From positions 1 to 54,829 of the forward strand of contig CAZTQT010000005.1 of NCBI GenBank assembly GCA_964615625.1: a stretch of 54,829 nt of DNA, in the 5' to 3' direction. The notes beneath the pieces are model-generated. The model ran no database searches, was not told where the DNA came from, and worked only from the letters and a program-made list of their open reading frames with translations. Shown in pieces: positions 1-15,946 of the stretch. A program made the position numbers and the translations under genes. Each line of letters opens with the position of its first letter. The first letter of the stretch is position 1. Source of the stretch: an uncultured Candidatus Saccharibacteria bacterium (lineage in GTDB: Bacteria > Patescibacteriota > WWE3 > UBA101185 > UBA10185).

Positions 1-36
1 CTGCGCTTCCTCTTAGTTGCTACGCAACAGGCTTGC
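1..36. repeat. Truncated copy of the structured repeat found in the second tRNA-Val copy
   Basis: CTGCGCTTCC (1-10) is the reverse complement of GGAAGCGCAG (24115-24124). It is followed by a hairpin GTTGC-TAC-GCAAC and AGG, the same layout as CATCGC-GTA-GCGATG-CAGG in the reverse complement of 24091-24124. Cut by the window edge. Confidence 0.6.
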
Positions 37-91
37 GCCACGATATATTAATTTACTTGTAATAGGTATTGAAAATTTGAAAATTTGAAAA

Positions 92-1813
92 TTAAATAAA
101 GTTAAATTTATCTTCGGGGTGTGGCTCAGTTGGTAGAGTGCGCGGTTTGGGACCGTGAGGTCGGCGGTTCGAGTCCGCCCACCCCGACCATTGTAAAAAC
201 CAATGTTCAAAATCCCCCTTATTTGCTCCCACCATAACTAAATCATCCAGTTCGCTAGTTTCTGAAAAGCTTTCTATAATTTCTTGGCTATTTTTTAACA
301 CAATAAATGGTTTTATAAGGTCAACAATGAGTTTTCCATCTAAAATGTAAAAGTTCGCGCCTAAAGTTCTTAATATTTTAGTTTTTTGTTCAGGAGTTCC
401 TTTTTCAAAAGCTAATTTTGCATTCTTAGTAAACTCAAATGTCCTAATAGCTGTATCCATCCAATCTAAAGTATCGACTTTTAATTTTTCTAACTTTGAT
501 TTCAAATCATTAATGGTATCTTCATATGTTTTTCTAGTTAAATCGTATTCTTCAATATCATTTAGACTTCCACGTGTATATAAATTAGTTAGTCTTACTA
601 TCCCTGCCTGTTCCTTTTCCAAAGTATCTTCTAAATTTCTAATTATTAAAGTTTGTTTATCTTGCTCTTTTTCGTTATTTTGTTTAATCCAGGAAATAGC
701 CCAGTTTGAAAATTCCTCGGATATAGTTATTTGTTCTAATAACTTCTTAACTTGCTTATCTATTTCGTTTATAGATAATTGCTTTTGTGTACATTTAACT
801 TTGGTAATATCATGGTTGCACCTAGCATATGAATAAGGCTTTATAGAACCAGAGGCAAGTTTTTTATTTTTAACATAAGGAATATAACTGCTCCCACACT
901 CACCACACTTGATTAAACCTCTATAGGGAACTTCAGTGTATTTACTAGGTCTAGGACGACCTTTATCTCCTAGAATATCCTGGATTACCCAATATTCTTC
1001 CTCTGTTATCATTCTAGGAATACTCTCATGAATTTTATATGTATTTCCAGCCCATTCATGCATACCAAAGTAATAAGGGTCACGTAAAAACTTGTAGAAA
1101 GTGCTTTTAGCTAAAGGACTATTACCAGTTTTCTTAGTTTTTATAGTTCTAAACCCCCATTCATTATTAAGTATATCTAGTATTTGAGATACCGAATAGC
1201 TTCGGGTCATGAACAGGTCTACTGATTTACGTAAAAGATTAAATCTAACCTCGTCTTTCTCAATTGTAGGCTCTCCATAAGGATTATATTTGTTTATATA
1301 ACCAATCTTAGATTTACCAGGCATCCATCCTCTTAAAACCTTGTCTTGTTGCCCCCGTTTCACATCTACACTCAAATCTTTCACATAAACATGAGAACTA
1401 CTAAATTTATTATAAAGACTAGCAATATCACTAGAATTATCTAAATAGATTTGCTGTGGGGTAACAATTGCAGTAATAAAACCTTTGGATAAAAAATCAA
1501 TTAGTATACCTGCCTCTGTAGCGTTTCTTGATAAACGATTTGGATGCCAACAAGCTATAACTTGATAATCACCTTTCTTTATAGATTCAACTAAAGCATT
1601 AAATATAGGCCTTTGAAAAGCGTCCTTAGCAGATTTAGCCTCCTGTAAAATAGACTGTTTTGAATAAAATAGTCCTAACTCATCGCATATATGTAAGGTT
1701 TGCTTAAGCTGGCTTTCCAAAGATGCAACCTGTCTATCTTCTGATTCAGTGCTTTTCCTAGTATAGATAACGGCTTTTAAGCCTTTTAATTGTGCAGAGT
1801 TAAAAATTTCCAT
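92..1813 (-). CDS. Large serine recombinase (resolvase, recombinase, Zn-ribbon and coiled-coil domains)
   Basis: Catalytic YTRKST motif, RLSRN motif, CGECG...C...C zinc ribbon, C-terminal coiled coil. The last ~32 residues (WSGWADSNRRP...) are the antisense reading of tRNA-Pro and its upstream flank. Confidence 0.93.
   Translation of the reverse strand: MEIFNSAQLKGLKAVIYTRKSTESEDRQVASLESQLKQTLHICDELGLFYSKQSILQEAKSAKDAFQRPIFNALVESIKKGDYQVIACWHPNRLSRNATEAGILIDFLSKGFITAIVTPQQIYLDNSSDIASLYNKFSSSHVYVKDLSVDVKRGQQDKVLRGWMPGKSKIGYINKYNPYGEPTIEKDEVRFNLLRKSVDLFMTRSYSVSQILDILNNEWGFRTIKTKKTGNSPLAKSTFYKFLRDPYYFGMHEWAGNTYKIHESIPRMITEEEYWVIQDILGDKGRPRPSKYTEVPYRGLIKCGECGSSYIPYVKNKKLASGSIKPYSYARCNHDITKVKCTQKQLSINEIDKQVKKLLEQITISEEFSNWAISWIKQNNEKEQDKQTLIIRNLEDTLEKEQAGIVRLTNLYTRGSLNDIEEYDLTRKTYEDTINDLKSKLEKLKVDTLDWMDTAIRTFEFTKNAKLAFEKGTPEQKTKILRTLGANFYILDGKLIVDLIKPFIVLKNSQEIIESFSETSELDDLVMVGANKGDFEHWFLQWSGWADSNRRPHGPKPRTLPTEPHPEDKFNFI
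115..190 (+). tRNA. tRNA-Pro(TGG)
   Basis: 76 nt cloverleaf: acceptor CGGGGTG/CACCCCG, anticodon arm CGCGG-TTTGGGA-CCGTG, GGTTCGAGTCC T-arm, encoded CCA. Confidence 0.97.
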
Positions 1814-1834
1814 AGTCTAATAAAATCCTATCGT

Positions 1835-2020
1835 CTATTTAACTTTTTTAGAGCCCTCTTTTTGAAAATATTCTAAGTCGTAGTAGTCTCCTAAACATTC
1901 CTCTACAAGCTCCCTAATTGACCTCTGAAGTCGTGCAGCTTCTACTTTGAGGAGTTTATGCCATTGCGTATCTATACGTATCTGTTTTGTTAGTTTTGTG
2001 TCACTTTGTCGACTTTTCAT
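1835..2020 (-). CDS. Small ribbon-helix-helix-like DNA-binding protein (possible regulator or directionality factor)
   Basis: 61 aa with beta-strand then two helices (TKQIRID-TQWHKLLKVEAA-RSIRELVEECL). GGGGG RBS, directly upstream of the recombinase. Confidence 0.6.
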   Translation of the reverse strand: MKSRQSDTKLTKQIRIDTQWHKLLKVEAARLQRSIRELVEECLGDYYDLEYFQKEGSKKVK

Positions 2021-2079
2021 AAAACCCCCTTCGGGGAGTTCTCTGGTCCGTGTTCCTACTCTTGAGGCTATATATTTAT

Positions 2080-2100
2080 TAGTAACTAGTTACTAGTAAC
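2080..2100. promoter_or_regulatory. Overlapping perfect palindromes (candidate operator)
   Basis: TAGTAACTAGTTACTA (2080-2095, 16 bp) overlaps GTTACTAGTAAC (2089-2100, 12 bp), 60-80 bp upstream of the RHH-like gene. Confidence 0.5.
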
Positions 2101-2306
2101 ATGTAACTTATTACTAAGAACAAGATACATGTTCTAGAACCTTAGCCTCTGTCGTGAGGTATCCGTCCAGGTGTGGTAAAACATCTTCTATGGCTCCCTT
2201 TCGGAGATGTAGGCTACCCACACAGCCTCTGCCAATTTAATAAAAGTTATTTCTAACCTTTGGTAGACAATCAACAAGATTACCTAACAAAAGTTACAAG
2301 TTTAGT

Positions 2307-2474
2307 TCAACTCTCATTACTCTGATTAACTAAATTAGGTTCTTCTAGTAACATCTTGAAAAACAAAAAAACTCTGGTTGCTTTATCTGTAGCCTCTTGA
2401 AAGGTTAATTCGACACCAAAGTTCTTTTTGTATATTTGTATAAATTCTTTAATTGCTTCTTCTGGTAAAACCAT
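2307..2474 (-). CDS. 55-aa helical hypothetical protein (below the ORF-track cutoff)
   Basis: Hand translation: MVLPEEAIKEFIQIYKKNFGVELTFQEATDKATRVFLFFKMLLEEPNLVNQSNES*. Co-oriented with the recombinase module. Confidence 0.7.
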   Translation of the reverse strand: MVLPEEAIKEFIQIYKKNFGVELTFQEATDKATRVFLFFKMLLEEPNLVNQSNES

Positions 2475-2526
2475 AAAAGCACTATATAGAGAGAAAGTTT
2501 TTATGTATGGGTATATAAGGTGACTC

Positions 2527-3174
2527 TTATGACTCTGAAATACCTGCAGTATTTTTAATGGATTCTAATATTTTATTAATTTGGTCTTCTGACACGACAA
2601 ATAATTTATTAGAATTTTCTTCAGATAAGTTAGCCATATGGATTGCTATTTCTTTATTGGACATTCCAGCAAGGTGACAATTTAGTATTTCTATATCACG
2701 TTCTAAAAGATTTTCATCACGAAGTTTATAGCGTTCTTTTGTAAAGGCGAAATGACTTACTTTTATATCAGATACAAAATCCCAAATTTCTTTTATATCC
2801 TTGATGGTGGTATGGTCCCAAATTTGGATATTCATAGTTAAGTCTTTTTCTCCCTCATTACGCCCATAAGAAACAACTGGTAAATCATCTATATCTATTT
2901 GCTGATTAAAGAGTGTGTAATAAACTAAAAAACGTTGCCAGTACGCAGGAAGATTGTAGTTATTCCTCAAACTTACTACGTGTTGTGAAAACTCTTTTGG
3001 CATTTTTCTAGCAATTGAAAACTGCTTTATTTCTTCTCTTTCAGCATAACCTTCGCTTGGGATACTAAATAACTCTCGAAGTTCTTTAATATCTTCAATA
3101 AATTTTGTTGTACTTAAGAGTATTTTTGCACGTTGCAAAGTAGTAGGTTTATTCATTTGGTAAATCTCCTTCAT
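2527..3174 (-). CDS. Hypothetical protein with C-terminal HTH-like region
   Basis: 215 aa. RDIEILNCHLAGMSNKEIA resembles a LuxR/sigma-4-type HTH. Confidence 0.55.
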   Translation of the reverse strand: MKEIYQMNKPTTLQRAKILLSTTKFIEDIKELRELFSIPSEGYAEREEIKQFSIARKMPKEFSQHVVSLRNNYNLPAYWQRFLVYYTLFNQQIDIDDLPVVSYGRNEGEKDLTMNIQIWDHTTIKDIKEIWDFVSDIKVSHFAFTKERYKLRDENLLERDIEILNCHLAGMSNKEIAIHMANLSEENSNKLFVVSEDQINKILESIKNTAGISES

Positions 3175-3721
3175 AAACTAAGGTAGCTTGGTTGAGGTCT
3201 AAACCAACATCTAAAAATTTTTGCTCAAAATATGCTTTTACAACACCTAACTTTTGTCTATGCGTTAATGAATTTTCATCTTCAAAGATATCAAATATGG
3301 AATCTCTACTTACTTGTTTCATTAAAGCACCATTTTTGACTAGAGTGTCATTTAAAACTTTTCTGTTTTTGGCTAAACTTTGAATGGCTTGAAGTTTCAG
3401 TTGAGTAGTAACGGTTTTATCTGTAATAACGTTCCAAAGTTCTTGTTCAAGTTTATAAAAAGTTCTCGAAAACTCAGCAGAATGCCTCTCAATATCAGTT
3501 TCATTTAATTCTGATTTCCAGCCTTCACGTATTTCTTTAATCCAGTTGTAAACAGTTCTTGGAGTAACACCAAAGTGTTCAGATATTTCAGTTGCAATAT
3601 TTATATCCTTCCTAAAAGGATATCTAACTAACAAGTCTTCCAATGATATTAGAGCTTGTTGTTTCTTGAGTTCTGCAATAGAACCCCCTTGTTTTTTTGA
3701 AACCAATGAATCTGTCTTCAT
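3149..3721 (-). CDS. HTH DNA-binding protein
   Basis: 190 aa. IATEISEHFGVTPRTVYNWIKEIR is a classic HTH, followed by a helical region. Confidence 0.65.
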   Translation of the reverse strand: MKTDSLVSKKQGGSIAELKKQQALISLEDLLVRYPFRKDINIATEISEHFGVTPRTVYNWIKEIREGWKSELNETDIERHSAEFSRTFYKLEQELWNVITDKTVTTQLKLQAIQSLAKNRKVLNDTLVKNGALMKQVSRDSIFDIFEDENSLTHRQKLGVVKAYFEQKFLDVGLDLNQATLVYEGDLPNE

Positions 3722-3744
3722 AGACTCATTATAACCGAAGTGAC

Positions 3745-3774
3745 AAAAAGCATAGGGCAGTATTTCTACTGCCC
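3745..3774 (-). terminator. Intrinsic terminator after the SH3b gene
   Basis: Minus strand GGGCAGTA-GAAA-TACTGCCC followed by TATGCTTTTT. Confidence 0.65.
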
Positions 3775-3781
3775 ATATAAC

Positions 3782-4153
3782 TTACTTAAACGTAACAATG
3801 TTTTGACCGACCCAACCTTCGGTATCTTCATACCTAATCTTGTAGTAAGTAATTTTTTGGTCTAGTTCATTTGTTACTTCTTTTTCATCTATAACAAGAA
3901 CATCACTTTTATTTGGTATTTTTGCAATAGGAGTTTCTTTACCAGGCATCTCTGCAGTTGCCCAAACATTAACTCTAGAATCGGATAGTTCATCTAAATC
4001 ATCACCACCAACCATTGCTGGTTTTTCTATGTAAGCTTCTTGTACTACTTCTTTTGTATCTTCTTTCTTAGTATCAGGAGTAGGGGTGACAATTAACAAA
4101 ATAATAAAACCTAAAAGTATAATTCCAATCCACTTTAGTACTTTTTTCAACAA
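3782..4153 (-). CDS. Membrane-anchored SH3b-like domain protein
   Basis: N-terminal TM helix (WIGIILLGFIILLIV), then VNVW...VLVIDE...YYKIRYEDTEGWV. AGGAGG at 4164-4159 favours a TTG start at 4153 or 4150. Confidence 0.65.
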   Translation of the reverse strand: MLKKVLKWIGIILLGFIILLIVTPTPDTKKEDTKEVVQEAYIEKPAMVGGDDLDELSDSRVNVWATAEMPGKETPIAKIPNKSDVLVIDEKEVTNELDQKITYYKIRYEDTEGWVGQNIVTFK

Positions 4154-4155
4154 AA

Positions 4156-4338
4156 TCACCTCCTTAATTTCAATAAATTTGTTTTTACTGTAAAAATCGG
4201 AAGTAAGGAGCTAAATAACGCTATCTCTGGGAGCTCCAGAACTAGTCGTATGGAATTTTTTGTTGTATTTATGCTGAAATATAGCCATTTGAAATTGGGT
4301 TCCAAATATTGAGTTGTGGTGCTTTTATTGCCAAACAT
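4156..4338 (-). CDS. Possible leader ORF, 60 aa
   Basis: GGAAGG RBS 10 nt before the ATG. Its stop abuts the RBS and start of the SH3b gene, and it lies under a structured leader. No recognisable domain. Confidence 0.3.
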   Translation of the reverse strand: MFGNKSTTTQYLEPNFKWLYFSINTTKNSIRLVLELPEIALFSSLLPIFTVKTNLLKLRR

Positions 4339-4339
4339 A

Positions 4340-4453
4340 AAGGGACAACCTTCCGGTATCCACAGCTTGGCAGCAATAGACCCTATGGAAAGGTTGCCCC
4401 TTCATGGGTCCATTGCTTTTTTAAGCATGTTTAAGTAAAGCTGCCAAGCTGTG
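4340..4453 (-). promoter_or_regulatory. Structured leader with alternative anti-RBS pairing
   Basis: Perfect 14-bp IR CACAGCTTGGCAGC (4361-4374) / GCTGCCAAGCTGTG (4440-4453). 4387-4402 is nearly complementary to the RBS region 4340-4354. Confidence 0.55.
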
Positions 4454-4559
4454 TTTAATTTACTTGTTTATTATATCAGGAGTTTTTGATATTCAATACA
4501 AAAGGATATCTTAAAAAGAAATTGTGGTGGTTAATATTAAGAAATATAATAGTCTTAGC

Positions 4560-7500
4560 ATGACTAAACAGAATACACACGATGAAAGCATAGAAGAAAT
4601 TAAAACGCTGTATAAGAAATACTCTGCTGAAGATGTTTTTAGTGCACTTTTTGCGTCATCCCTCTGGCTCCCTAACAGCACTAGTTATATTCAACACCAA
4701 CTATTTGTAGCTACAGCTCTGGCGCTAAAACAATCAGCATATCAAGAAAAGAACAAAATCAATGAATATAATAAGCTTAAGGAATTCCTTGAAAAACTGT
4801 ATGCGCTAACATCCGGATATCCTACCTTTGAAGACTATATACCAACCTTGGATTGGGGAGAAGTCAAATTTCCATATGAAGATGAACAATACAAAATACT
4901 ATATGGCGGAGAATTGGACAATGCGTATGATTATATGACCCTTTTCAAAATACTTTACTGCAATATGGACGGACACTATCAGGAACAAGTGAAACGCAGT
5001 CCTACAAAGGAATTCGAAGGATTTCTAATACTACAAGATAGTTTGCTAAATAAAATAACCTCCCAAAAGAAACTCACTGAAGAGGTACCTGATATTGAAT
5101 TAATGCACACAGAAGTACCTACTGAGAAATTTTGGAAAGAGTGTATCTCTTTTATTAAAACTTCAGTTATTACCGAGCTATTTCCAGAAGAATCATTAGG
5201 TGAATTGACTATAAACATGGGCAATTTGAATGAAAAGAGTTTAACAGCTAAGAATTTCTTAAATAAGGTCGGGGACGGAAATCTTTTAAAACACCTATTT
5301 GTTCAGGTAGGTACTAAATACATACCAATTTTACCAAGAAGGGGACTAGCAGTATTACTTGATAGGTGGTCGAACTATTGTAAAAAGCTAGTATCAGAAG
5401 GGGAAACCTCTATAGAAAGGAACTATCAAAAGGAAATAACCATTGAACTTGCAAAATATCTACAGGGAAGACTAAATAAACGAGAACTATTTCCATTAAT
5501 TAGTGCCCAAAAAGATAATAGCGAGTCTCTAGATGAAGTTTTTGCTGCAGGCATTTCCACAGAAGAAACATTTATTGCTGTGTATGCCCTACCACCCGTA
5601 ACTGATAGGGAAAAATGCAAAGAATTTATTAGAAAATATGAAGCAGCTATTAAAGAATCAATAAATAACTTAAAAAGAACACCAGTAAAATTTGCATGGC
5701 ATTTGGAAAAAACAGGAATGCAAGCTCCCTATAACCATGAAAAAGTAGAAACTCTAATTGTAATACCACAAGCTACTACTAAAATGTTTGGAGTAGAGAG
5801 CTTTAAAAACTTAAATCCTCGAATAATGTTTTTAGAAGAGTTTTTAGCAATATTGGATGAGATAGAAAGTGCAGAAGATTTAGTAAAGTATTGGGACTAC
5901 TGCGATGATTTAGAAAAAAATAGTCAATTTGTCCCTATAACATCAAACCTTGATAAATTTGCATCCTATATAGATTCTCACGGTGTCCTTGTACCTGGGG
6001 CTAATACACCAAATATGATATTTATGGACCTATCTTGGGGAACCAATTATAGATACAAATCTCTTGCCAGCTTTTGGGAACTTTATCCCCAAGAAAGCTG
6101 GTATGGAAACCCTAGAGAGTGGAACGTTAAAAAAGAAAGGGAAAACAGCGTAAGAGTCACATCAAAAACTGAGAATATGCATTCAGCAATCTACCTTACA
6201 CTAGGTGATAAAAGGATTTTCATCTCTGCGCCATTTGAAAAGTTAGGATATAAAGAAGGCTCACTAGCTAACCTCTTTGTAGAGTGTGTGGGCGATTATT
6301 TTGCTAGATTCAGCGATTTACTAGAGCAACATAGTTTCTTCCAAGGTAGCGCAACTGTACATACACTTATATTTCCAAATAACCTTACAACATCAGAAGA
6401 TTTTAAGCACATAGTTCACTTGAAACCAGAACAGGATGAGCTATGGAAGCTAGATACTGGTTGGTTCCAACCAGGACGTTTTGGAATAAGAATTGTTTTT
6501 AACATAGAAAAAGTCCTAGAAATGTTTGAAGACATTTCAAGTAATGATATTGAAATTGAGTTGATTAAAGATATTGTAAATGCAATAAATGACAGAACAA
6601 CCAGAGAGGATATCAAAAAAATAACAGACGCAATAGAAAAATTAAGGGGCAATCCTGCCAGATTCAGAGCCTTTCATGCGGATAAAAATGCGGCATTCCC
6701 AGACTTTGTTAATACAATGACTCCTGGAATTCATGAGCATAAACTTGCACGTAAAAATATATCCTTTATTGCAAAAGAAGCAGGGTTAGAACAGGGGTTG
6801 TATGAAAAGGATGAGGCTAAAAAACTAATAGTAGACCTCAGAGCTAAAATATTAGAGCTTATTGAAAAAGAAGTGCAAAAATTTGATTGGGAAGACTCAA
6901 TTAGATTTCTAATAACTAGGACAGACGCCCTGGTACATAAATACGAAATGGCCAGAGCACATGCAAAAAATTCATTAGAGCAGGAGGTTGAATACAACCC
7001 AGAAGAACGCCATGCGGAAGCGCACAATGAGTTTGTATTAAACCACAAATGCTACAGATACTTGATAGAAAAATTTTTACAATTGAAACCAAAAGGTCCC
7101 AAAAAGATTGACAGTAAGGAATTTAAATATATGGCAAGCCTGGTGGACAAATTAATAGAAGTATATGCTGCCAGTGACCACTTATTTTATGGTATATACC
7201 CTGCAAAACTACGTGTTTCTTATGACTATGTAACTAGTGTTGAGTATCCTCAAGACATTGACGCAATGCAAAAAAGATACGGAGAAGAAGAATCACAAAT
7301 ACAGCTAGGAATAATAGGTAATAATCAAGATAAAGTAGAATCCCCTACACCATTCGAAGATTATCTAGATGACTTAGATAAAGCCTTTGCCAAAGACCTT
7401 GGTTTTTCTATAGCGGAATTACTAAGTATTCTTCAAATACTCTCTCAATGGGCATATTTTCAAGAAAAAGTAGTAGAGAAAGCTTACTATCAAACTAAGA

Positions 7501-8294
7501 AAGAGACCATTCAAAAAACATGTATGAAACACATCCCCAATTTGACTATAGAAAGCTTCAACAAAATAATTGACTTTCTTACTTTGGAACAGAATGATTT
7601 ACTTAAAGTAATTGGAGAAAATGAACTAGCAGCGGACTTACCTGTATGGGAACATGATTTACGGCCCTTCCGATACACAATAAGACCTCTAATAGAAATA
7701 GAAGACGACATTGTTTGGGGACCTTATTCAGCTTATAAAACACGTATTATATGGGAGAATGTGGCAATTTATAATAAGTTACCCGCAAATATGGATACCT
7801 ATGAAACTAAAAAAGTTATTGATAGAGAAAAGAAATTAATAGAAACAGCGTTAGAGATAAAAACCCTTGAAATCATTAAGAGACACACAAAATTTGCTGA
7901 TAGTATAAATTATTCTAGAGGTACCCATCCCCAAGAACTCGGGGACTACGATACTTTAGCCTACATAAAAGGAAAAAATGTACTACTTAATATTGAGTGT
8001 AAAGACCTATTACCTGTGTACAACTTAAAGAAGGCAAGTGAGCTTAAAGAAAAGATATTTGATGATACAAAGCCAAAGAAATATTTAAAAAGAGTAGAAA
8101 ATAGAGAGGAATATTTGAAGAATAATATCAATGCATTTAATGAAAAACTCGAATGGGATATAAAAAAAGACGCAAAAATAATTTCACTGTTTATTACCAG
8201 ACATAACTATTGGTGGACTAAATTTCCTCCTATAAGAACAAATGTTAAGTTTATGAGAATAGACTTACTTGAAGAATATCTAGAAAGCATTTAA
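4560..8294 (+). CDS. Large hypothetical protein with C-terminal PD-(D/E)xK-like nuclease motif; candidate defence protein
   Basis: Long uninterrupted ORF (track starts at 4524; ATG 4560 preferred, 1,244 aa). GDYDTLAYIKGKNVLLNIECKD fits D...ExK. Located in the island beside the R-M pair. Confidence 0.7.
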   Translation: MTKQNTHDESIEEIKTLYKKYSAEDVFSALFASSLWLPNSTSYIQHQLFVATALALKQSAYQEKNKINEYNKLKEFLEKLYALTSGYPTFEDYIPTLDWGEVKFPYEDEQYKILYGGELDNAYDYMTLFKILYCNMDGHYQEQVKRSPTKEFEGFLILQDSLLNKITSQKKLTEEVPDIELMHTEVPTEKFWKECISFIKTSVITELFPEESLGELTINMGNLNEKSLTAKNFLNKVGDGNLLKHLFVQVGTKYIPILPRRGLAVLLDRWSNYCKKLVSEGETSIERNYQKEITIELAKYLQGRLNKRELFPLISAQKDNSESLDEVFAAGISTEETFIAVYALPPVTDREKCKEFIRKYEAAIKESINNLKRTPVKFAWHLEKTGMQAPYNHEKVETLIVIPQATTKMFGVESFKNLNPRIMFLEEFLAILDEIESAEDLVKYWDYCDDLEKNSQFVPITSNLDKFASYIDSHGVLVPGANTPNMIFMDLSWGTNYRYKSLASFWELYPQESWYGNPREWNVKKERENSVRVTSKTENMHSAIYLTLGDKRIFISAPFEKLGYKEGSLANLFVECVGDYFARFSDLLEQHSFFQGSATVHTLIFPNNLTTSEDFKHIVHLKPEQDELWKLDTGWFQPGRFGIRIVFNIEKVLEMFEDISSNDIEIELIKDIVNAINDRTTREDIKKITDAIEKLRGNPARFRAFHADKNAAFPDFVNTMTPGIHEHKLARKNISFIAKEAGLEQGLYEKDEAKKLIVDLRAKILELIEKEVQKFDWEDSIRFLITRTDALVHKYEMARAHAKNSLEQEVEYNPEERHAEAHNEFVLNHKCYRYLIEKFLQLKPKGPKKIDSKEFKYMASLVDKLIEVYAASDHLFYGIYPAKLRVSYDYVTSVEYPQDIDAMQKRYGEEESQIQLGIIGNNQDKVESPTPFEDYLDDLDKAFAKDLGFSIAELLSILQILSQWAYFQEKVVEKAYYQTKKETIQKTCMKHIPNLTIESFNKIIDFLTLEQNDLLKVIGENELAADLPVWEHDLRPFRYTIRPLIEIEDDIVWGPYSAYKTRIIWENVAIYNKLPANMDTYETKKVIDREKKLIETALEIKTLEIIKRHTKFADSINYSRGTHPQELGDYDTLAYIKGKNVLLNIECKDLLPVYNLKKASELKEKIFDDTKPKKYLKRVENREEYLKNNINAFNEKLEWDIKKDAKIISLFITRHNYWWTKFPPIRTNVKFMRIDLLEEYLESI

Positions 8295-8361
8295 AAATGG
8301 ATTCTTTTCAAAGTTTATTGGGGATACTAAGGCTGAGACATTCCGATGGTAATATCTAAAT

Positions 8362-9114
8362 ATGAATCAACATAAAGCATGTGTTTTTTGTAAAAAAGAA
8401 GTAAAACTAACTAAAGAGCATGTACTCCCAAATTGGTTGTGCTCCTTATATCCAACGGATGAAATGGTAATAAATGAGTTCACGGGTGCTAGCCAATCAC
8501 AATGGAATTCTAAAATCTTTCAACACACAGCAAAAGTGGTATGCGAAAGCTGTAATGGTGGCTGGATGTCTAAGCTCGAAAAGGACATAAAGCCGCTTCT
8601 GACCAAAATGCTTAACTTAGAACCATTACTTATTCAAAAAGCTGAACAAGAGCTACTGGCTTTCTGGGCACAAAAAACATTTTTAATGCTGAACAAGGCA
8701 ATACCGAATGGCTTAAAAATAACACAAGATGCATACGATGATGTATACAATTTGAAGAGTTCTTCAAAAAAGATTTTAGTAAACTTGGGATGGAGAGCAA
8801 ATTTTCAGGGTACAAAACAAAATCCAATTGCTAGTTATGAAATAAAACAAATTACATCCATACAAGTAAAAAAAGAGCTTGGAAAACAAGTGGAAGAAGA
8901 AAAAAATAATGGTGGTTTTGTATGGAAAGGAGTATTTGCAATAGGTCCAGTTATATTCGAGTTAATTGGGCACAATATGCCAATAGTACTCAATGTAGAA
9001 ATACCTAAAAACAGCCTAAAAACCATACAACCCTATAAGGAAAATTTAAATTGGCCAAATGAATGGCCCGCAGAAGCTGAGGGTGGCCTAGATAAAATAA
9101 AAACCAGGGGATAA
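8362..9114 (+). CDS. HNH-type endonuclease-like zinc-finger protein
   Basis: CVFC...TKEHVLP...VVCESCN pattern (CxxC, EH, CxxCN). Confidence 0.7.
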   Translation: MNQHKACVFCKKEVKLTKEHVLPNWLCSLYPTDEMVINEFTGASQSQWNSKIFQHTAKVVCESCNGGWMSKLEKDIKPLLTKMLNLEPLLIQKAEQELLAFWAQKTFLMLNKAIPNGLKITQDAYDDVYNLKSSSKKILVNLGWRANFQGTKQNPIASYEIKQITSIQVKKELGKQVEEEKNNGGFVWKGVFAIGPVIFELIGHNMPIVLNVEIPKNSLKTIQPYKENLNWPNEWPAEAEGGLDKIKTRG

Positions 9115-9157
9115 GGTAACTTTATGCTTTGAGATAGAAATAGTACATAACAAAGAA

Positions 9158-10249
9158 CTATTTGATAAATCTAATCTGTAAATTCAGATTAAATCTCAAA
9201 GAGTTGTCGGAATTATATACATTTCCAAACCCATACCTACTTGTAGAAGGAGTATCGAATTTTGTGTTATTGAACAGGTAATTCTCAAACTCATTCACAT
9301 TGTATATGTGATAACAGACCAGGTCACCGTCATCTTTCACTATTATGTAGCCTCCCGATGCCCAATAATCACCTTCCCAAGCTTTAGCAGGGGTCATCCC
9401 TAGTGCAACAGCAACCAGGAAACGTTTAATTTTATATACATACAATTTGTGCGTATCTGTATGAAAATTCAAAGGATTTTCCTGTTCCAAAAGGGCAACT
9501 AAATCCTTAACTGTAGAAGCTCTGCCAGAGTAGTAATAGAGCACCATATTTGAAATTATTTCGGGTAAACGTGAATCTATCATTCCTAAATTAAGGGTGA
9601 ATATCTCGTTACCTGTAGAAACAAACTCAAAATTATAACCTTGTTCGATTAAACTAGCTATTTTGTCTCTTATTCTTAAACTCTCGTCACCAACATCGTA
9701 ACCTACATCAGATGATTCTCTTACACTATGTTTTTCACTATTGAGATTGTATTCAAAATTTGTAGCATTCCCTGCATTAAGTAAAGTAGAAGCACCTCCC
9801 AATTGAGATTTAATACTAAAACCTAAAGTAGGAGTTAGTCCTGTTCTAAAATCATGAATTATTAAATTGATATCTTCTTTCTTATTTGAATTTGCCTTTA
9901 GTTTTTTTACATGAATAGTTTTCAAGAATTCCTCTACGTCTGCTACGCCAAATGTTCTGCCTTTTATAGCATCGCTTTTTATAGTTTTCAAAACCTTTTC
10001 TGCATTCATTTGGAAAGTATCGAAGGGTATTTCACCTAACACTTTTGAATTATCTCCATCAATAATTTTTACTAAACCTTCCCTTCTATACTCCAAATCT
10101 CTTTCTTCCTTCCTTAAAATACTAATAATCGGGTAATAAATGTCTTTAACTCGTTCCAGGTTTTCGTTTGCAGCATATAATTCACCAGCTCCTAATAGCT
10201 TTAAGAAAGTATAAATTTCACTCCATTCGCCTATATTACCTGTCATCAT
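9158..10249 (-). CDS. Type II restriction endonuclease, HpaII family
   Basis: N-terminus GNIGEWSEIYTFLKLL, GFSIKSQLGGASTLLNA, and C-terminal KFDTPSTSRYGFG...LNLQIRF. Overlaps the MTase gene by 14 nt. Confidence 0.85.
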   Translation of the reverse strand: MMTGNIGEWSEIYTFLKLLGAGELYAANENLERVKDIYYPIISILRKEERDLEYRREGLVKIIDGDNSKVLGEIPFDTFQMNAEKVLKTIKSDAIKGRTFGVADVEEFLKTIHVKKLKANSNKKEDINLIIHDFRTGLTPTLGFSIKSQLGGASTLLNAGNATNFEYNLNSEKHSVRESSDVGYDVGDESLRIRDKIASLIEQGYNFEFVSTGNEIFTLNLGMIDSRLPEIISNMVLYYYSGRASTVKDLVALLEQENPLNFHTDTHKLYVYKIKRFLVAVALGMTPAKAWEGDYWASGGYIIVKDDGDLVCYHIYNVNEFENYLFNNTKFDTPSTSRYGFGNVYNSDNSLRFNLNLQIRFIK

Positions 10250-11252
10250 AAAGTTTATCTCCTAAAATTTTTACTATTTCCTCTGCAGTGGCCTGTATTG
10301 CGGGTACAGCAACAGAATTGCCAAATTGTTTATATGCTTGTGCATCAGATACAGGTATCTTGAAAGAATCAGGAAATCCCTGCAACCTTGCCCATTCCCT
10401 AGGAGTCATCTTTCTAATTCCCTCTCTATTAACCTCACCCTTAATATTTGTTATTGGTACAAAATTTTCAAGTCTAGTATCTATAATCAAGTTTCTCTCC
10501 CTGCCCATACCCCCTACAACTACAGCATTAGCAATATCATCTAGGTCTTTTATTTCATAACCAAAACCATTACCTTTACTTTCATGCCTTTTCTTATGTT
10601 CTCTTAGGGACTCTAGATAAACATCAGATAGATAATACTTCACGGATACGGGTTCTTCCTCAACTATATCTTTAATGGAAACATTAATATTTCTTGGTTT
10701 AGGATACTCAAAAGAATCAATCCCCAGGTCCTTCCTAAAACCAATGATAAAAACTCTTTCTCTGTTTTGAGGAACACCATAATCCTTAGCGTTTACTATT
10801 TGGGGTTCTGGCACATAGTAATCCAGGTCTTCTCGCAATACGTTTAGAATTGTTTTTAGAGTCCTGCCTCTGTCATGATTGGTTAATCCTTTTACATTCT
10901 CTAGAAACACTACTTTAGGTCTCTTGTGTTTAATTATTCTAGCTACTTCAAAAAACAAAGTACCTCGAGTGTCTTCAAAACCCCCTCTTTTACCTGCAAT
11001 TGAGAAGGCTTGGCAAGGAAACCCCGCTAGCAAAATTTCATGGTCTGGAACATCTTGTTCCTTTATTTGTCTTATATCACCGAAGGGAGTTTCACCAAAA
11101 TTGGCATGGTAAGTCTGCTGACTATATTTATCCCATTCAGAGGACATTACTGATTCACCACCAACATTCTCAAAAGCCATTCTGATACCACCGATACCAG
11201 CAAAAAGGTCTATTACTCTGAATTTTTTAATGTCATTAACCATTATTTCCAT
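10236..11252 (-). CDS. DNA (cytosine-5) methyltransferase, cognate of the endonuclease
   Basis: DLFAGIGG (motif I), GFPCQ (IV), LENV (VI), QNRER (VIII), QFGNSV (X). Confidence 0.97.
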   Translation of the reverse strand: MEIMVNDIKKFRVIDLFAGIGGIRMAFENVGGESVMSSEWDKYSQQTYHANFGETPFGDIRQIKEQDVPDHEILLAGFPCQAFSIAGKRGGFEDTRGTLFFEVARIIKHKRPKVVFLENVKGLTNHDRGRTLKTILNVLREDLDYYVPEPQIVNAKDYGVPQNRERVFIIGFRKDLGIDSFEYPKPRNINVSIKDIVEEEPVSVKYYLSDVYLESLREHKKRHESKGNGFGYEIKDLDDIANAVVVGGMGRERNLIIDTRLENFVPITNIKGEVNREGIRKMTPREWARLQGFPDSFKIPVSDAQAYKQFGNSVAVPAIQATAEEIVKILGDKLYDDR

Positions 11253-11287
11253 TATACATTGGTCAATAACAATACATAAAGGTATTA

Positions 11288-11365
11288 TTAGACTAAACTA
11301 GGTATAGAAACTGTAGCAGGACAAGTCATAAAATAGTTACAAACTTCGTCCACTATGCTCGACCA
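11288..11365 (-). other. Detached C-terminal coding segment of the recombinase (rejoined on excision)
   Basis: Reads in frame from the shared TGG TCG core as WS-SIVDEVCNYFMTCPATVSIPSLV*. It has no start codon of its own. Confidence 0.6.
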
Positions 11366-11561
11366 ATGAATTTTGGCTACCGATGTAATTGGTAGACAAA
11401 ATTTATTAGTGGGTGGTAAGGAGTTAACCTAGGCTTTAGCCGTGGTTCCACTTTTGATGCTATAGTGCGGAGCACTATGGCTCAAATGCAAGCTTTGCTT
11501 TGTCCGCCCACCCCGACCAATGAATTTTGGCTACCGATGTAATTGGTAGACAAAATTTATT
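11360..11561 (+). repeat. 48-bp perfect direct repeat (11360-11407, 11514-11561) flanking a structured mini-element with an 18-bp tRNA-Pro 3' copy
   Basis: CGACCAATGAATTTTGGCTACCGATGTAATTGGTAGACAAAATTTATT occurs twice and is itself a hairpin. GTCCGCCCACCCCGACCA at 11502-11519 equals 173-190. Confidence 0.95.
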
Positions 11562-11569
11562 TAACAACA

Positions 11570-12019
11570 ATGACAAAGCCAATAAGAAACAATTTGATAA
11601 TCGAATTGCATATTCCAGATCTTAAAGTGGCTGAAAATTTTTATTCCAAGCTAGGCTTCTCAACCAACATATACGATAAACCAAATGAGGAGGAATTGGG
11701 ATATATGACAATGACTCTAGAAAGTACCTTAGGTAATACAATGCTTAATTTTTATGGCGGAGATGATAGAGTTTATAACCAATCCTACTTTAAACAGTTT
11801 CCAAAAGATACAAAAAGAGGATATGCAACTGGAATTACAATACCAGTAGATAACATAGAGAGTATCTACGATCTAGCAAAAACCAATCTTTCAAATTATA
11901 TTGTTCGTGAACTGGAGGAACTTCAGGATCGTAATTTCAGCTGGAAAGATTTCCGCATAGTGGATCCTTTTGGTTTTTATATTAAATTTACTGAACTTGT
12001 AGATTGGGGACAAGATTAA
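11570..12019 (+). CDS. VOC/glyoxalase-family protein
   Basis: ELHIPDLKVAENFYSKLGF and WKDFRIVDPFGF motifs. ATG 11570 preferred over the track start 11543. Confidence 0.8.
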   Translation: MTKPIRNNLIIELHIPDLKVAENFYSKLGFSTNIYDKPNEEELGYMTMTLESTLGNTMLNFYGGDDRVYNQSYFKQFPKDTKRGYATGITIPVDNIESIYDLAKTNLSNYIVRELEELQDRNFSWKDFRIVDPFGFYIKFTELVDWGQD

Positions 12020-12117
12020 GTTTATTCAAATACTTGGATATTAATAAACTTAGATAGTAAAATTTAAATATAATTAATTTTTAACGGCTTATGTGTTCAG
12101 CCGCATGAGGGGTAAAA

Positions 12118-13287
12118 ATGGAGAATAATCAAACTTCATCAAATATTAGCAACATAGTAGAATCTAACAACCAATTTGCTTTAGATTATTATTTTCAATT
12201 AAAAAATAAGGAAAGTGGAAACGTTTTTTTATCTCCTTTCAGTATTTATAGTATTTTAGCTATGGCTTATGAAGGAGCAAGAGGGCAGACAGCTGAGGAA
12301 ATGAGATCATTACTGCACCTTCCAACAGATGATAGTTTAAGAAGATCTGAGTATGCAACAACAGTTGAAGGTTTAAACAACGATGATAAAAAATATAAAA
12401 TCAGTATTGCTAACGCACTTTGGGCTCAACAAGATTATAAGTTTCTAGATGAATATCTTAATATAGTAGAAAATTTTTATGGTGGAAAAGCCAATAACCT
12501 TGATTTCAAAAAAGACCCGGAAGGCTCTAGAACAACTATAAATAACTGGATAGAAGAACAAACAAACGACAAAATCAAGGATTTAATACCTTTTGGGATA
12601 ATTGATGGATCAACAAGACTTATACTTACAAACGCAATTTATTTTAAAGGTGAATGGGTAAGACAATTCAATGCAGAAGAAACAAGAAATGAAAATTTTA
12701 GAATAAATGCAAACGAATCTATTGATGTCCAAATGATGAGACGTGTTGATGAGGATGCTAAATTTAATTACACCGAAAACGATGATTTACAGATTCTTGA
12801 AATGCCTTATTCAGGCGAAGAACTATCTATGCTAATCCTTCTTCCGAAAAATGATGATCTAGAAACATTAGAAAATTTACTCAGTACAAAAAAACTATCA
12901 GAGTGGAAACAAAATCTAGAAAACCAGCATGTTGTGGTATCTATTCCAAAATTCAAATTTGAGACTAAATACTTTATGGCTAAAGATCTTAAAGCAATGG
13001 GAGTACCTACAGCGTTTGATTGGCCAGGAGCTAATTTTTCTGGAATGGACGGTGCGGAGGAGTTGTTTATCGGAGAGGTTATTCACCAAGCACTTGTTGA
13101 GGTAACTGAAGAAGGAACCGAAGCGGCAGCGGCAACTACAGTAGTTTCATTGAAGGGATCTATGAGAAGTAATAATACCCATACAATCCCTGTTTTCCGT
13201 GCGAATCATCCCTTTATATTTCTAATTCAAGAAAAAACTAATGGGAATATTTTATTTATGGGAAGGGTTGTTAACCCAACCCTATAA
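12118..13287 (+). CDS. Serpin-family protease inhibitor
   Basis: NVFLSPFSI, NAIYFKGEW, hinge EEGTEAAAAT, FRANHPFIFLI, ILFMGRV. GAGGGG RBS. Confidence 0.95.
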   Translation: MENNQTSSNISNIVESNNQFALDYYFQLKNKESGNVFLSPFSIYSILAMAYEGARGQTAEEMRSLLHLPTDDSLRRSEYATTVEGLNNDDKKYKISIANALWAQQDYKFLDEYLNIVENFYGGKANNLDFKKDPEGSRTTINNWIEEQTNDKIKDLIPFGIIDGSTRLILTNAIYFKGEWVRQFNAEETRNENFRINANESIDVQMMRRVDEDAKFNYTENDDLQILEMPYSGEELSMLILLPKNDDLETLENLLSTKKLSEWKQNLENQHVVVSIPKFKFETKYFMAKDLKAMGVPTAFDWPGANFSGMDGAEELFIGEVIHQALVEVTEEGTEAAAATTVVSLKGSMRSNNTHTIPVFRANHPFIFLIQEKTNGNILFMGRVVNPTL

Positions 13288-13359
13288 AATCTATTAGGAA
13301 AACATTTGGTACGTCAATTACGACTCCTTAGTAAAATTTAATTCTAAACTGTGAAACAA

Positions 13360-14277
13360 TCAGTCGTAGAAACACTCACCATATATTTCTTCAGGTACTT
13401 GATTTTCTTCCATCAAGTCACAACGCGGATAATCCTGCCCAGAATAAATTTCAACCCATTTACCATCTACTAATTTAGCAATTACAAAGTGACCTGTACG
13501 CCTATAATTAACATTTATTAAGGCGTAATCATCAACTTTTTTACTAACAGATATAGTTGCGTCTTTGATATCTAAATCTTTCAGGTATTGGGATTGTTCA
13601 GTGTAATTGTTATCGTATGACTCAGTACATGTAAAAGAAAAACTGTTGTAAAACGGCTCTGTTTCTGAAAAAGCTACACAATCAGGATTTGCTCTAAAAA
13701 CACATTTAGAGATGCCTTTTTCATACGCTTGGATATAATCATAAAGATGTGGATCTTCCAATGACTTGGATGAGTTTTTGTAGTTTAAGACATAATCATA
13801 AGACTCCATTATTTCCTTTATATCTGTTGATAATGTAGATACTATTTTGCTAAATAAGGTATCATCGGAAGAAGAAAAGTTATTACAATCATAATTTTTA
13901 TAAACTAACCCTGTTTCCTTATCATTCATAATGTTTAAACCATCGTCCCCAACCCACCAAACAGAAGCCTCGGTATCCAACAAAACGTCACCTTGGTAAA
14001 TATTAGAAACATTGTTAAAACTCTTCTCTATATCAGCACCAAATTCATATTTTTCAGTGAAAATAGAGGTAGGTGATTTTACAGACGTAGACGAATCACC
14101 ATATTTTATATTTTCTATCCCACCAGAATCACTCAAAGATTTTTTATTTTGAAAACAACAGTACACCAGTGTTGCAAAAAACATTAACAAAGAAATTGCT
14201 AAAAGTATTAAAAGAGCCAAATTAAGCTTGTTTTGATTTTTAACACTATTTTCCCGTTTTTTATCTGTTTTATTCAT
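13360..14277 (-). CDS. Membrane-anchored Cys-containing surface protein, unknown function
   Basis: N-terminal TM helix and several Cys in the extracytoplasmic part. Confidence 0.7.
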   Translation of the reverse strand: MNKTDKKRENSVKNQNKLNLALLILLAISLLMFFATLVYCCFQNKKSLSDSGGIENIKYGDSSTSVKSPTSIFTEKYEFGADIEKSFNNVSNIYQGDVLLDTEASVWWVGDDGLNIMNDKETGLVYKNYDCNNFSSSDDTLFSKIVSTLSTDIKEIMESYDYVLNYKNSSKSLEDPHLYDYIQAYEKGISKCVFRANPDCVAFSETEPFYNSFSFTCTESYDNNYTEQSQYLKDLDIKDATISVSKKVDDYALINVNYRRTGHFVIAKLVDGKWVEIYSGQDYPRCDLMEENQVPEEIYGECFYD

Positions 14278-14464
14278 GTTTTACCCTTTAAATAACTTAA
14301 AAAAACCTGCTTTTATAGTAACATATTTGTTATTAAGAAAACCCTGTATAACAATGGAAGATTGGATGGGATACATTCAAAAAGAAAAAATAAAGTCCTC
14401 CCAACCACAGTAGAATTGTCATCTTGTAAGCTAGGTGTCTCTCTGATAATCTATACCTCAAGAT

Positions 14465-15289
14465 ATGGTGAATAACTCATCAAGTAACTACTTTTACAAA
14501 AACGGTAAGAGGATAATAAAAAAGAAGATTCCAAAACAAATTGTTGTAGAAGATATTGATCATATTAGCTCCCTAATCACGGAAGAAGAAAAGTTCACTA
14601 TTGCCCAGCCTGAAATTAAAAAACCTTGGATAAAAACAAAAACTGAAAGAGTAAAAGGTGTAATTTCAAAAATCCAAAATGATAAGAGATCTAACATGGC
14701 TAAAATTAGAGCAGGAGTAACTGGTATATGGGCATCAGCATCAGTTCTAGCCATTTTTACATTTTTAACTTCTTTCATGGTTACGCCCCAAAAAGCAAAA
14801 CCTCAAGATACAAGAAGGTACTCTATATACTCATCTAAACCTTTAACACTGCAAACTGCCACGACATCAATATATTCAAAAGATTCAAGAGCTCAGAAAA
14901 TAAATGCTGTTTATAAAAAATATAATTGTCCGTTAGAAGGTATGGGTGATGTTTTGGTCTATGAAGCTGACAAAAATAATATACCTTGGTGGTTAGTAGC
15001 TGCAGTATCTTTCCAAGAATCAGGATGTGGAAAAGTGACACCAAAAGTAGGAGGTAAGGAATCGTACAACGCGTGGGGTTGGGGAGTGTATGGGAATGTT
15101 GTTGTTACATTTGAAAACTGGGTAAGAGGTATAGAAAGGGTATCAAAATATTTTTCTGACAAGTTCTATTCGAAAGGAGTAGAAGATTTGTGTATAATAA
15201 TGAATACGTACACACCACCTTCAAATGGTTCTTGGTGTAACGGTGTAAAATACTTTGGAGATATGATACAAAACTACGAAACTAAATAA
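14465..15289 (+). CDS. Membrane-anchored lysozyme-fold peptidoglycan hydrolase (glucosaminidase/transglycosylase-like)
   Basis: TM helix, then AAVSFQESGCGK and YNAWGWG motifs. Confidence 0.75.
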   Translation: MVNNSSSNYFYKNGKRIIKKKIPKQIVVEDIDHISSLITEEEKFTIAQPEIKKPWIKTKTERVKGVISKIQNDKRSNMAKIRAGVTGIWASASVLAIFTFLTSFMVTPQKAKPQDTRRYSIYSSKPLTLQTATTSIYSKDSRAQKINAVYKKYNCPLEGMGDVLVYEADKNNIPWWLVAAVSFQESGCGKVTPKVGGKESYNAWGWGVYGNVVVTFENWVRGIERVSKYFSDKFYSKGVEDLCIIMNTYTPPSNGSWCNGVKYFGDMIQNYETK

Positions 15290-15379
15290 ACTGCTCTTTG
15301 GTTTCCCCTATTTAATCCTATGAAACATATCCTATAGCGTTTGCATAAATAGTGAAAAAATGTTAAAATTTTCCCTCGT

Positions 15380-15946
15380 ATGGTCAAAAAACTATCTAAA
15401 ATACAATTTAATTTCTTGCCGGCTATTTTGCTTTTTGTTGGTTTTACAACATTCCTTGGATCTGTAGAGAAAAAACCAACAAAAATGAGGTCTGAATCTA
15501 TAGTAAAAAAGGATGTATCTAAAAAAGAAGAGAAGGTGGAGGCTTTAGAAAAGTTCTTAGAGAGCCAAAAATCTCCTCTTGCCAAGAATGCTCGTACATT
15601 TGTAGATGTAGCCGAAAAATATAATCTAGATTATAGACTTTTACCTGCTATTGCATGCTTAGAGTCTTCTTGCGGTAAAAGGATTATTCCTGGATCTTAT
15701 AACCCATTTGGGTGGGGTATATATGGAAAAAATGCCATTTACTTTAGGTCTTACGATGAGGCTATTGAGATTGTTGGTAAGGGTATAAAAGATAAATATG
15801 TTTCAAAAGGACTAGATACACCTGAAAAAATAGCCCCTGTTTATACTCCTCCTAATCCAGTAGGGTGGAGAAATGGGGTCAATTTCTTTATAAGTAAAAT
15901 AGATGGCCCTGTTACAAAAGATCAGACCACGCTTTTTTCTTGTTAA
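15380..15946 (+). CDS. Second lysozyme-fold hydrolase paralogue
   Basis: Signal or TM segment, then PAIACLESSCGK, YNPFGWG and YTPP, matching the upstream gene. Confidence 0.75.
   Translation: MVKKLSKIQFNFLPAILLFVGFTTFLGSVEKKPTKMRSESIVKKDVSKKEEKVEALEKFLESQKSPLAKNARTFVDVAEKYNLDYRLLPAIACLESSCGKRIIPGSYNPFGWGIYGKNAIYFRSYDEAIEIVGKGIKDKYVSKGLDTPEKIAPVYTPPNPVGWRNGVNFFISKIDGPVTKDQTTLFSC

Follow-up and report, generated by a model that had tools for sequence, protein, structure and literature searches.

An integrative island in a candidate-phyla bacterium with a putative attP site inside its own serine recombinase gene and a predicted exchange of the recombinase C-terminus at tRNA-Pro

The 54,829-nt stretch of DNA analyzed here (hereafter the window; contig CAZTQT010000005.1 of an uncultured Candidatus Saccharibacteria bacterium) contains a gene for a large serine recombinase (LSR) whose open reading frame (ORF) runs through a putative attachment site into a tRNA-Pro gene. 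We propose that this LSR moves an integrative island of ~11.2 kb, that attP lies within the 3' end of the recombinase gene itself, that target tRNA genes would be recognized through a T-loop-like motif, and that integration would exchange the native C-terminal tail of the enzyme for residues read from the antisense strand of the tRNA. We assign this combined statement of att-in-gene anatomy, recognition and tail exchange a probability of roughly 0.6, and its parts are graded separately below.

Results

The recombinase gene and its displaced 3' end

In its integrated state, the LSR ORF occupies positions 92-1813 on the minus strand and encodes 573 amino acids by translation. Its assignment draws on Pfam and PHROG searches and on 96 homologues: PF00239 (Resolvase) matches residues 14-114 with an E-value of 1.6e-11, PF07508 (Recombinase) and PF13408 (Zn_ribbon_recom) are likewise found, and the PHROG search returns integrase (2e-58). 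R19-K20-S21 and the four cysteines C303, C306, C332 and C341 are invariant in the homologue alignment. Judged by its predicted domains, fold and site logic, the protein is a large serine recombinase.

The ORF has no stop codon ahead of the island boundary and runs antisense through tRNA-Pro(TGG) (115-190, plus strand; called by ARAGORN, 65.8 bits in Rfam, and identical to the tRNA at the empty site in contig L121 described below), which is still intact after integration. The codons from position 184 down to 92 on the minus strand are non-native, being antisense tRNA plus upstream spacer; they account for the 30 residues past Trp-Ser (W-S) and give a C-terminus that translates as ...GDFEHWFLQWSGWADSNRRPHGPKPRTLPTEPHPEDKFNFI*. 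W-S itself is encoded by TGG TCG, the antisense of the ...CGACCA end of the tRNA, with TGG (W) being the antisense of CCA. CGACCA forms the attL core at 185-190 (TGGTCG on the minus strand) and is the sole stretch common to both junctions; it recurs as the attR core at 11360-11365, next to native downstream flank.

On the minus strand, 23 codons (SIVDEVCNYFMTCPATVSIPSLV) and a TAA (11288-11359, with the stop at 11290-11288) continue from CGACCA at 11360-11365 in the same phase as the LSR ORF. Joining the island ends rebuilds an LSR C-terminus of ...QWS-SIVDEVCNYFMTCPATVSIPSLV*, with ...TTTTTACAATGGTCGAGCATAGTGG... as the reconstructed attP junction sequence. The displaced part amounts to 23 of ~569 native LSR codons, and every Pfam domain remains in the 92-1813 ORF. 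On recheck, all sequence statements in a preliminary description of this locus (a stopless ORF, a W-S core and an in-frame tail on the minus strand) were correct, and its proposal that the gene is split by its own att site, with the C-terminus exchanged on integration, is supported and extends to the whole recombinase family.

Island boundaries and the empty site

Public metagenome contigs were scanned for the hairpin downstream of tRNA-Pro, which yielded two contigs, L121 (from sample ERZ795031) and L122. L121 is 99.5% identical to window positions 1-193 and 99.3% identical to 11502-15722, and it represents the empty site, with the CGACCA of tRNA-Pro abutting ATGAATTTTGG and no island present. 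L122 is a more distant relative whose chromosome is 88-89% identical to the window; there, tRNA...CGACCA joins ATGAATTTTGG, and tRNA-Pro is followed by the equivalent of window 11360-11524 (99.4% identity) without the recombinase island. Relative to L121, the window thus contains two separate insertions, the 11,175-bp island and a 154-bp unit.

The island body spans 191-11359 (11,175 bp counting one core copy, with a repeat spacing of 11,175) and is absent from both L121 and L122. The native downstream flank of tRNA-Pro, with the hairpin ATGAATTTTGGCTACCGATGTAATTGGTAGACAAAATTTATT, lies at 11520-11561 on the plus strand and stands directly 3' of the tRNA in L121 (3768-3809); chromosomal genes come next, and this flank had no match in the viral contigs scanned. 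L121 is the empty-site relative that the preliminary description had sought, and the CGACCA junction that it had placed at 11360-11365 is borne out both by this contig and by L122, which has the 154-bp unit without the island. We regard the island anatomy described here as nearly certain.

The 154-bp unit (11366-11519, plus strand) lies outside the LSR island, is found in L122 at 4066-4230 and is absent from L121. It opens with a copy of the 42-bp hairpin that lies downstream of the tRNA (11366-11407) and closes, after a further 94 bp, with 18 bp (11502-11519) that repeat the tRNA-Pro 3' end and finish in CCA. Because this separate unit is present, CGACCA plus 42 bp occurs in duplicate (11360-11407 and 11514-11561). 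The 154-nt unit folds at -61.5 kcal/mol (z = -6.3) and may be a tRNA-like small RNA or a relic of another integrating element.

The 18-bp copy at 11502-11519 had been put forward in the preliminary description as an alternative island end, in which case the circle would encode ...WSGWADKAKLAFEP*. This placement has in its favor the 18/18 identity of the repeat with the tRNA 3' end and a predicted tail that has AKLAFE in common with an internal LSR segment. However, in L122 the equivalent of window 11360-11524 stands right next to tRNA-Pro although the island is missing, which makes the repeat either older than the island or independent of it; moreover, none of the relatives has a tail like the predicted one, and it is the CGACCA junction that restores the family motif. 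The 18-bp repeat, a member of the 154-bp unit, was accordingly rejected as attR, and the L122 arrangement refutes this alternative, to which we accord only a very slight probability. The hexapeptide AKLAFE, seen in the rejected tail KAKLAFEP (11470-11519, minus strand) and in NAKLAFEKG of the LSR (~470-480), was taken as coincidence.

A further candidate core, ACCAATG (199-205 and 11362-11368), is in frame and would give ...FEHW-SSIVDEV. It was rejected as well, both on the grounds that L121 joins tRNA...CGACCA straight to ATGAATTTT and on the grounds that HWFL[QK]W is kept in P0002-P0004. More tRNA-Pro 3'-half fragments (…gggaccgtgaggtc…gcagaatgcgggatcaccccgacca) and duplicated tRNA upstream segments were observed around the site, at 3400-3600 in L121 and at 3700-3760 and 4230-4300 in L122, which suggests a hotspot at which integration has occurred repeatedly.

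Native and acquired tails across the recombinase family

The family sample comprised the 96 LSR homologues, with 80 loci retrieved from species-representative genomes and 38 from viral contigs, and 86 full-length relatives. Most of the homologues end like W.G..[DE]SN[PLRQ], which is antisense tRNA translated, while a minority end in W-x3-V-[DE]-[DE]-V-R-T-[FYW], the native tail. Among the full-length relatives, 55 of 86 enter an antisense tRNA called by ARAGORN, representing 13 isotypes (Asn, His, Trp, Gln, Ser, Gly, Pro, Ile, Leu, Asp, Ala, Cys and Lys), and four further relatives have antisense-tRNA-type tails with no tRNA called. Sixteen have a native tail and no tRNA at the gene 3' end; the other 11 either run off the contig end (six) or are unclassified (five). 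The tRNA is antisense to the LSR ORF in 55/55 cases, 54 of these 55 share a single reading phase with respect to the T-loop, and the tRNA-joined copies remain full-length ORFs in all 55 genomes.

The W..IVD.V...F ending named in the preliminary description proved to be real and matches the native C-terminus of relatives away from tRNAs. For example, P0016 ends in WSSTVDDVRTWF and the window reconstruction in WSSIVDEVCNYF, with 8/12 residues identical. The P0004 island (L124), whose LSR is 47% identical, carries WSTIADDVCNYFITLKDLVYIPSYN*, a tail of 25 codons that is equal in length to that of the window. L008 and L020 share 87% identity over 6.4 kb, as far as ...TCGATGGGGT, after which L008 continues into tRNA-His and L020 into the native HIVEVVRTAI...; the left boundary of the L008/L020 homology was considered as an att junction and rejected.

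We built a position matrix from the native tails of non-tRNA relatives and scanned the 53 kb upstream of the window LSR gene. The best same-strand match in these 53 kb (12.9) fell exactly at the predicted junction and in the predicted frame, compared to 10.4 for the best opposite-strand match. The same matrix finds same-strand tail relics upstream of tRNA-joined genes, although none was detected in the available DNA of L123 and L001. attL and attR were paired by anchoring to the end of the tRNA and the frame of the tail (pairing by longest common substring gave spurious cores and was dropped), and L047 and L081 were excluded because their matrix matches lacked a pairable core. In the 11 resulting pairs, namely the window and ten other loci with islands of 4-11 kb, joining attL and attR restores an in-frame native tail in 11/11. 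By these sequence comparisons, an LSR ORF carrying attP in its 3' end is a family-wide pattern.

Geometry of the att sites and the T-loop motif

For the comparison of sites, att positions were counted from the T of TGG, the antisense of CCA. The shared cores in the 11 pairs are 3-11 bp long and every one includes nt 4-6, which places the crossover at the discriminator and last acceptor-stem bases of the tRNA, with the element supplying the terminal N-CCA at attL. Integration at tRNA-Pro would thereby preserve the tRNA, and the crossover dinucleotide in the window is inferred to lie within nt 4-6 of TGGTCG.

The motif formed by the V-R-T codons in the P' arm lies at nt 22-30 in 25/25 attP sites (13 native, 11 reconstructed and one attP-like in L124). 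It reads GTT[CA]GAAC[CT] or a near variant, with GTTMGMACY in 18/25 and single-base variants in the other seven. In the reconstructed attB sites, the T-loop [AG]NT[CT]GAAC[CT] is found at nt 17-25 in 11/11, so that the motif is exactly 5 bp farther from the center in attP than the T-loop is in attB. In the window, the 3' half of tRNA-Pro forms the attB half-site, with the T-loop motif ACTCGAACC (minus strand) at nt 17-25; in attB, this tRNA T-loop motif is ACTCGAAC. The corresponding zinc-ribbon-type motif of the P' arm is GTTTGTAAC (11336-11344, minus strand).

For LI integrase, the motif bound by the zinc-ribbon domain lies at positions 16-24 of attP and 11-19 of attB, and Rutherford et al. 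propose the same for other serine integrases (PMC3783163). The 5-bp shift in the present family agrees with this rule for the LI zinc-ribbon motif (PMC3783163). We consider it quite likely, given this site geometry, that the zinc-ribbon domain of the clade reads a T-loop-like motif (mostly GTTMGAACY, and GTTTGTAAC in the window), and such recognition would explain the spread over 13 tRNA isotypes.

The P arm of attP would occupy 191-216 on the minus strand, inside the last native codons (GDFEHWFLQ), and it holds GTTCAAAA at 205-212; its extent was inferred by analogy with the LI integrase half-sites (PMC3783163). P-arm DNA is nearly identical in L001, L123 and L124 even though the proteins are 47-79% identical, and it shows synonymous GAT/GAC and TTT/TTC changes. 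An inverted GTTCGAAC in the P arm has no consistent position in the family, and GTTCAAAA/GTTCGAAA occurs in this clade only, 19-26 nt out. Since no consistent P-arm motif is available, the exact center is ambiguous between nt 4-5 and nt 5-6.

Two predicted forms of the recombinase

In the circular form, the ORF would cross the P arm, the crossover and the P' arm and end 23 codons on (...QWS|SIVDEVCNYFMTCPATVSIPSLV*). After integration, the LSR gene would be fused to the antisense tRNA, and the native tail segment would stand 11 kb off at the other end of the island. Because attP lies inside the gene, two isoforms are expected: a full-length enzyme that only a circular or attP-like form would yield, and, from the integrated copy, an enzyme that lacks the tail and ends in an arbitrary extension. 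What integration replaces is the second half of a conserved C-terminal helix plus the peptide that follows it, and what it supplies is 2-58 arbitrary residues. The tail would be dual-coded, with motif 1 (V-[DE]-[DE]-V-R-T) overlapping the P' half-site and a second motif lying outside the half-site.

The helix was recognized in an AlphaFold2 model of P0016, a native-tail homologue, in which a linker (pLDDT ~60) is followed by a helix at residues 508-530 (pLDDT 88-92) that spans the junction W517 through VDDVRTWF. In the same model, helices 342-389 and 395-446 form a coiled-coil inserted in the zinc-ribbon domain, and the best PDB matches of the model are the full-length SPbeta, Bxb1, phiC31 and LI integrases.

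Constraint on the tail as DNA site and as peptide

Several observations weigh against the proposed reading. In nearly all tails, Val is encoded by GTT and the Arg codon has A as its third base, across hosts that include candidate-phyla bacteria, Nitrospira and Aminicenantes. In many cases the native tail stops 5-10 residues past motif 1 and has no motif 2. The acquired tails of the 55 tRNA-joined relatives, 2-58 residues of antisense tRNA, share no common feature. Intact-tail LSRs are also found in long chromosomal contigs without a nearby tRNA (L020, 759 kb; L035, 4.3 Mb). The circle junction had no match in the viral contigs scanned. Finally, the P' motif of the window, GTTTGTAAC, deviates from the family consensus; this type of motif is also present in L124 (GTTTGCAAC), which makes a clade variant probable.

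The first three of these points favor the main rival explanation, a neutral overlap with the same anatomy, in which the tail is merely the translated P' arm, conserved as a DNA site, and its exchange has no selected consequence. The near invariance of GTT and of the Arg third base across compositionally very different hosts is what such an overlap predicts, as is a motif that mimics the T-loop with the canonical 5-bp shift; tails that finish shortly past motif 1 and full-length ORFs in 55 genomes despite arbitrary tails of 2-58 residues point the same way. Given the DNA-level constraint on the V-R-T codons, conservation of motif 1 would be expected of an inert peptide as well, and much of its conservation is, on the sequence evidence, explained by the attP half-site role.

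Other features of the tail are, however, difficult to reconcile with a neutral overlap. The Arg is preserved through both CGA and AGA codons, third positions are unconstrained at the x and [DE] codons, and the conservation profile shows codon periodicity. The tails of the window and the P0004 island (L124) are equal in length and differ by synonymous substitutions as well as replacements (9 identical codons, 5 synonymous codons, including AGT/TCA for Ser, and 11 replacements). Motif 2, [YF]x[YFHS][IV]Px[LY], occurs at a fixed position, +20 from the junction W, in 10 tails or about a quarter of the native tails (P0018, P0043, P0069, L020, L004, L027, L030, L072, L124 and the window, where it reads IPSL at 11294-11305 on the minus strand). 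It lies 55-70 nt from the crossover, beyond any described LSR half-site, and should therefore be constrained as protein only. The confidently predicted helix across the junction likewise argues against a neutral overlap, which we consider a credible but not the favored explanation. A subclade formed by P0014, P0021 and P0024 has LPDIL at +23.

Taken together, these comparisons indicate that the tail is under mixed DNA and protein constraint, with purifying selection acting on it as a peptide. Constraint as protein means in turn that the exchange probably matters, and a use of the isoform difference becomes somewhat the likelier case. We judge it an evenly balanced proposition, from sequence conservation, that the tail exchange is biologically used, for example with the full-length enzyme favoring or regulating integration and the tail-less enzyme serving or limiting excision.

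A minor rival places the effect at the RNA level: the LSR 3' end is antisense to a strongly transcribed tRNA, and tRNA read-through would damp the LSR only when the island is integrated. The invariant orientation (55/55 tRNAs antisense) fits this explanation, as does the 42-bp hairpin, which is next to the tRNA at the empty site and is shifted 11 kb away by the island. Against it, the att geometry already dictates orientation, a simple terminator scan does not call the flank hairpin an intrinsic terminator, and the protein-level constraint on the tail would be left unexplained. We therefore rate an antisense-transcription effect as improbable.

A more specific version of tail use would make the C-terminal helix and IPxL a built-in directionality module, with the full-length enzyme locked to attP x attB. 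We think this unlikely. If it were true, the tail-less enzyme would be freed for attL x attR excision with no or less need for a factor, the position of attP inside the gene would itself be the switch, and the clade would provide a natural toolkit of serine integrases for reading the T-loop, which is universal to tRNAs. The preliminary description had raised a switch in directionality or stability, and this idea fared unevenly: the peptide-level constraint on the tail speaks for it, whereas the stability version finds no conserved extreme C-terminus, degron- or ssrA-like, among the native tails compared, and the acquired tails are arbitrary.

Intact tails in nested arrangements

The intact-tail chromosomal copies appear to be partly explained by tandem or nested arrays. 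Such arrays imply either that attP has recombined with attL- or attR-type relics or that homologous exchange has taken place between islands. For canonical serine integrases, neither attL nor attR is a recombination partner of attP.

Individual loci differed in their surroundings. In L029, a second serine recombinase lies beside tRNA-Asn, ~9 kb downstream of the first gene; in L049, tRNA-Asn lies ~9.5 kb downstream, and no second recombinase was detected there. L052 has an upstream tail copy in addition to its intact tail (4785 and 11560-11640), and the matrix scan suggests an upstream copy in L025 and L054 too. In L124, a 30-nt piece of P arm without a gene stands ahead of attR (655-700), and P0048 is flanked on both sides by mobile-element genes.

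Comparison with known integration systems

The window LSR resembles the LI/A118, Bxb1, phiC31 and SPbeta SprA integrases in its domain set, fold and short cores, and in having the same distal motif in attP and attB, displaced by 5 bp. It differs from characterized serine integrases in that attP falls within the last ~25 codons of the ORF, in that the protein continues past the zinc-ribbon domain for another ~60 residues (linker plus helix) at its C-terminus, and in that the targets are the 3' ends of tRNAs of many isotypes, whereas characterized serine integrases target mostly protein-coding genes. In the open-access literature we found no prior account of a serine integrase with attP in its own gene, with tRNA targets, or in Patescibacteria, and the large survey of Durrant et al. 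makes no mention of tRNA targets or of an overlap between ORF and att. By that literature, an att site within the ORF at a tRNA appears to be new for serine recombinases.

The closest functional analogue is provided by the SSV-type 'suicidal' tyrosine integrases (SSV1, pT26-2) of archaeal viruses and plasmids, in which, according to PMC7253208, att lies inside the ORF, tRNAs are the targets and the gene is partitioned. Both groups thus share an att site in the integrase ORF, a tRNA target and partition on integration, and the tandem and relic copies seen here can donate parts to a neighboring gene, paralleling the hybrid origins treated in the same paper (PMC7253208). They differ in that the SSV type is a tyrosine recombinase of archaea and the window family a serine recombinase of mostly candidate-phyla bacteria. 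Furthermore, the SSV-type gene is split into two inactive pseudogenes, whereas here 23 codons are displaced and, by domain prediction, the catalytic and DNA-binding domains stay in one ORF.

Two tyrosine-integrase systems offer partial parallels. In the mycobacteriophages BPs and Brujita, attP lies inside the repressor gene, the repressor carries C-terminal degradation tags and the integrase is a tyrosine integrase; as in the present family, integration alters the C-terminus of an element-encoded protein through an attP within a gene. Whereas BPs and Brujita affect the repressor, it is the recombinase that is interrupted here, and its native tails have no conserved extreme C-terminus. Islands that target tRNAs by means of tyrosine integrases resemble the window island in inserting at the tRNA 3' end, preserving the tRNA and leaving relics at hotspots. 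In those islands the copied part of the tRNA 3' end is long, typically with tens of bp of identity, in contrast with the 3-11 bp found here, where the tRNA appears to be recognized by motif rather than by homology.

Serine integrases are valued for a directionality that the sites and a separate factor determine. In this family each recombination event would rewrite the enzyme, offering a simple natural case for the effects of C-terminal extensions on direction, activity and turnover, and the natural variation among sites independently supports the Rutherford-Van Duyne site model. As a bacterial serine-recombinase counterpart of the archaeal 'suicidal' integrases, the family points to convergent evolution of att sites within ORFs at tRNA genes. 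The T-loop is the most conserved stretch of any tRNA gene, and one clade can hop among at least 13 isotypes. Small cargo islands of this class would be common in candidate-phyla bacteria, a group with poorly known mobile elements. On a practical level, gene callers will report such recombinases with spurious antisense-tRNA tails.

Island cargo and neighboring genes

The cargo of the window island comprises a restriction-modification system and a large unknown protein. The latter is a 1256-aa ORF (4524-8294) with a weak, length-consistent PADLOC match to 'Upx' (E 3e-5). It is followed by a 250-aa HNH-like ORF (8362-9114), an HpaII-type restriction enzyme (9158-10249) and a C5 cytosine methyltransferase (10236-11252), all three assigned by Pfam/PADLOC search, and on these predictions the cargo (4524-11252) looks defensive. 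The P0004 island differs in its cargo, carrying cation transporters.

Small genes resembling helix-turn-helix (HTH) or ribbon-helix-helix (RHH) proteins lie beside the LSR gene (1835-3721). This module encodes proteins of 190 aa (HTH), 215 aa (weak LuxR-type HTH), 55 aa and 61 aa (RHH-like/Omega-repressor-like), and it is syntenic in the 79%-identical relative L001 (684-2603). Judging by these matches, its products are candidate regulators or candidates for a directionality factor. At the opposite side of the recombinase gene, just upstream of tRNA-Pro, a three-copy 8-bp tandem repeat (GAAAATTT) at window positions 67-99 overlaps the sole promoter-like match on that strand (85-114).

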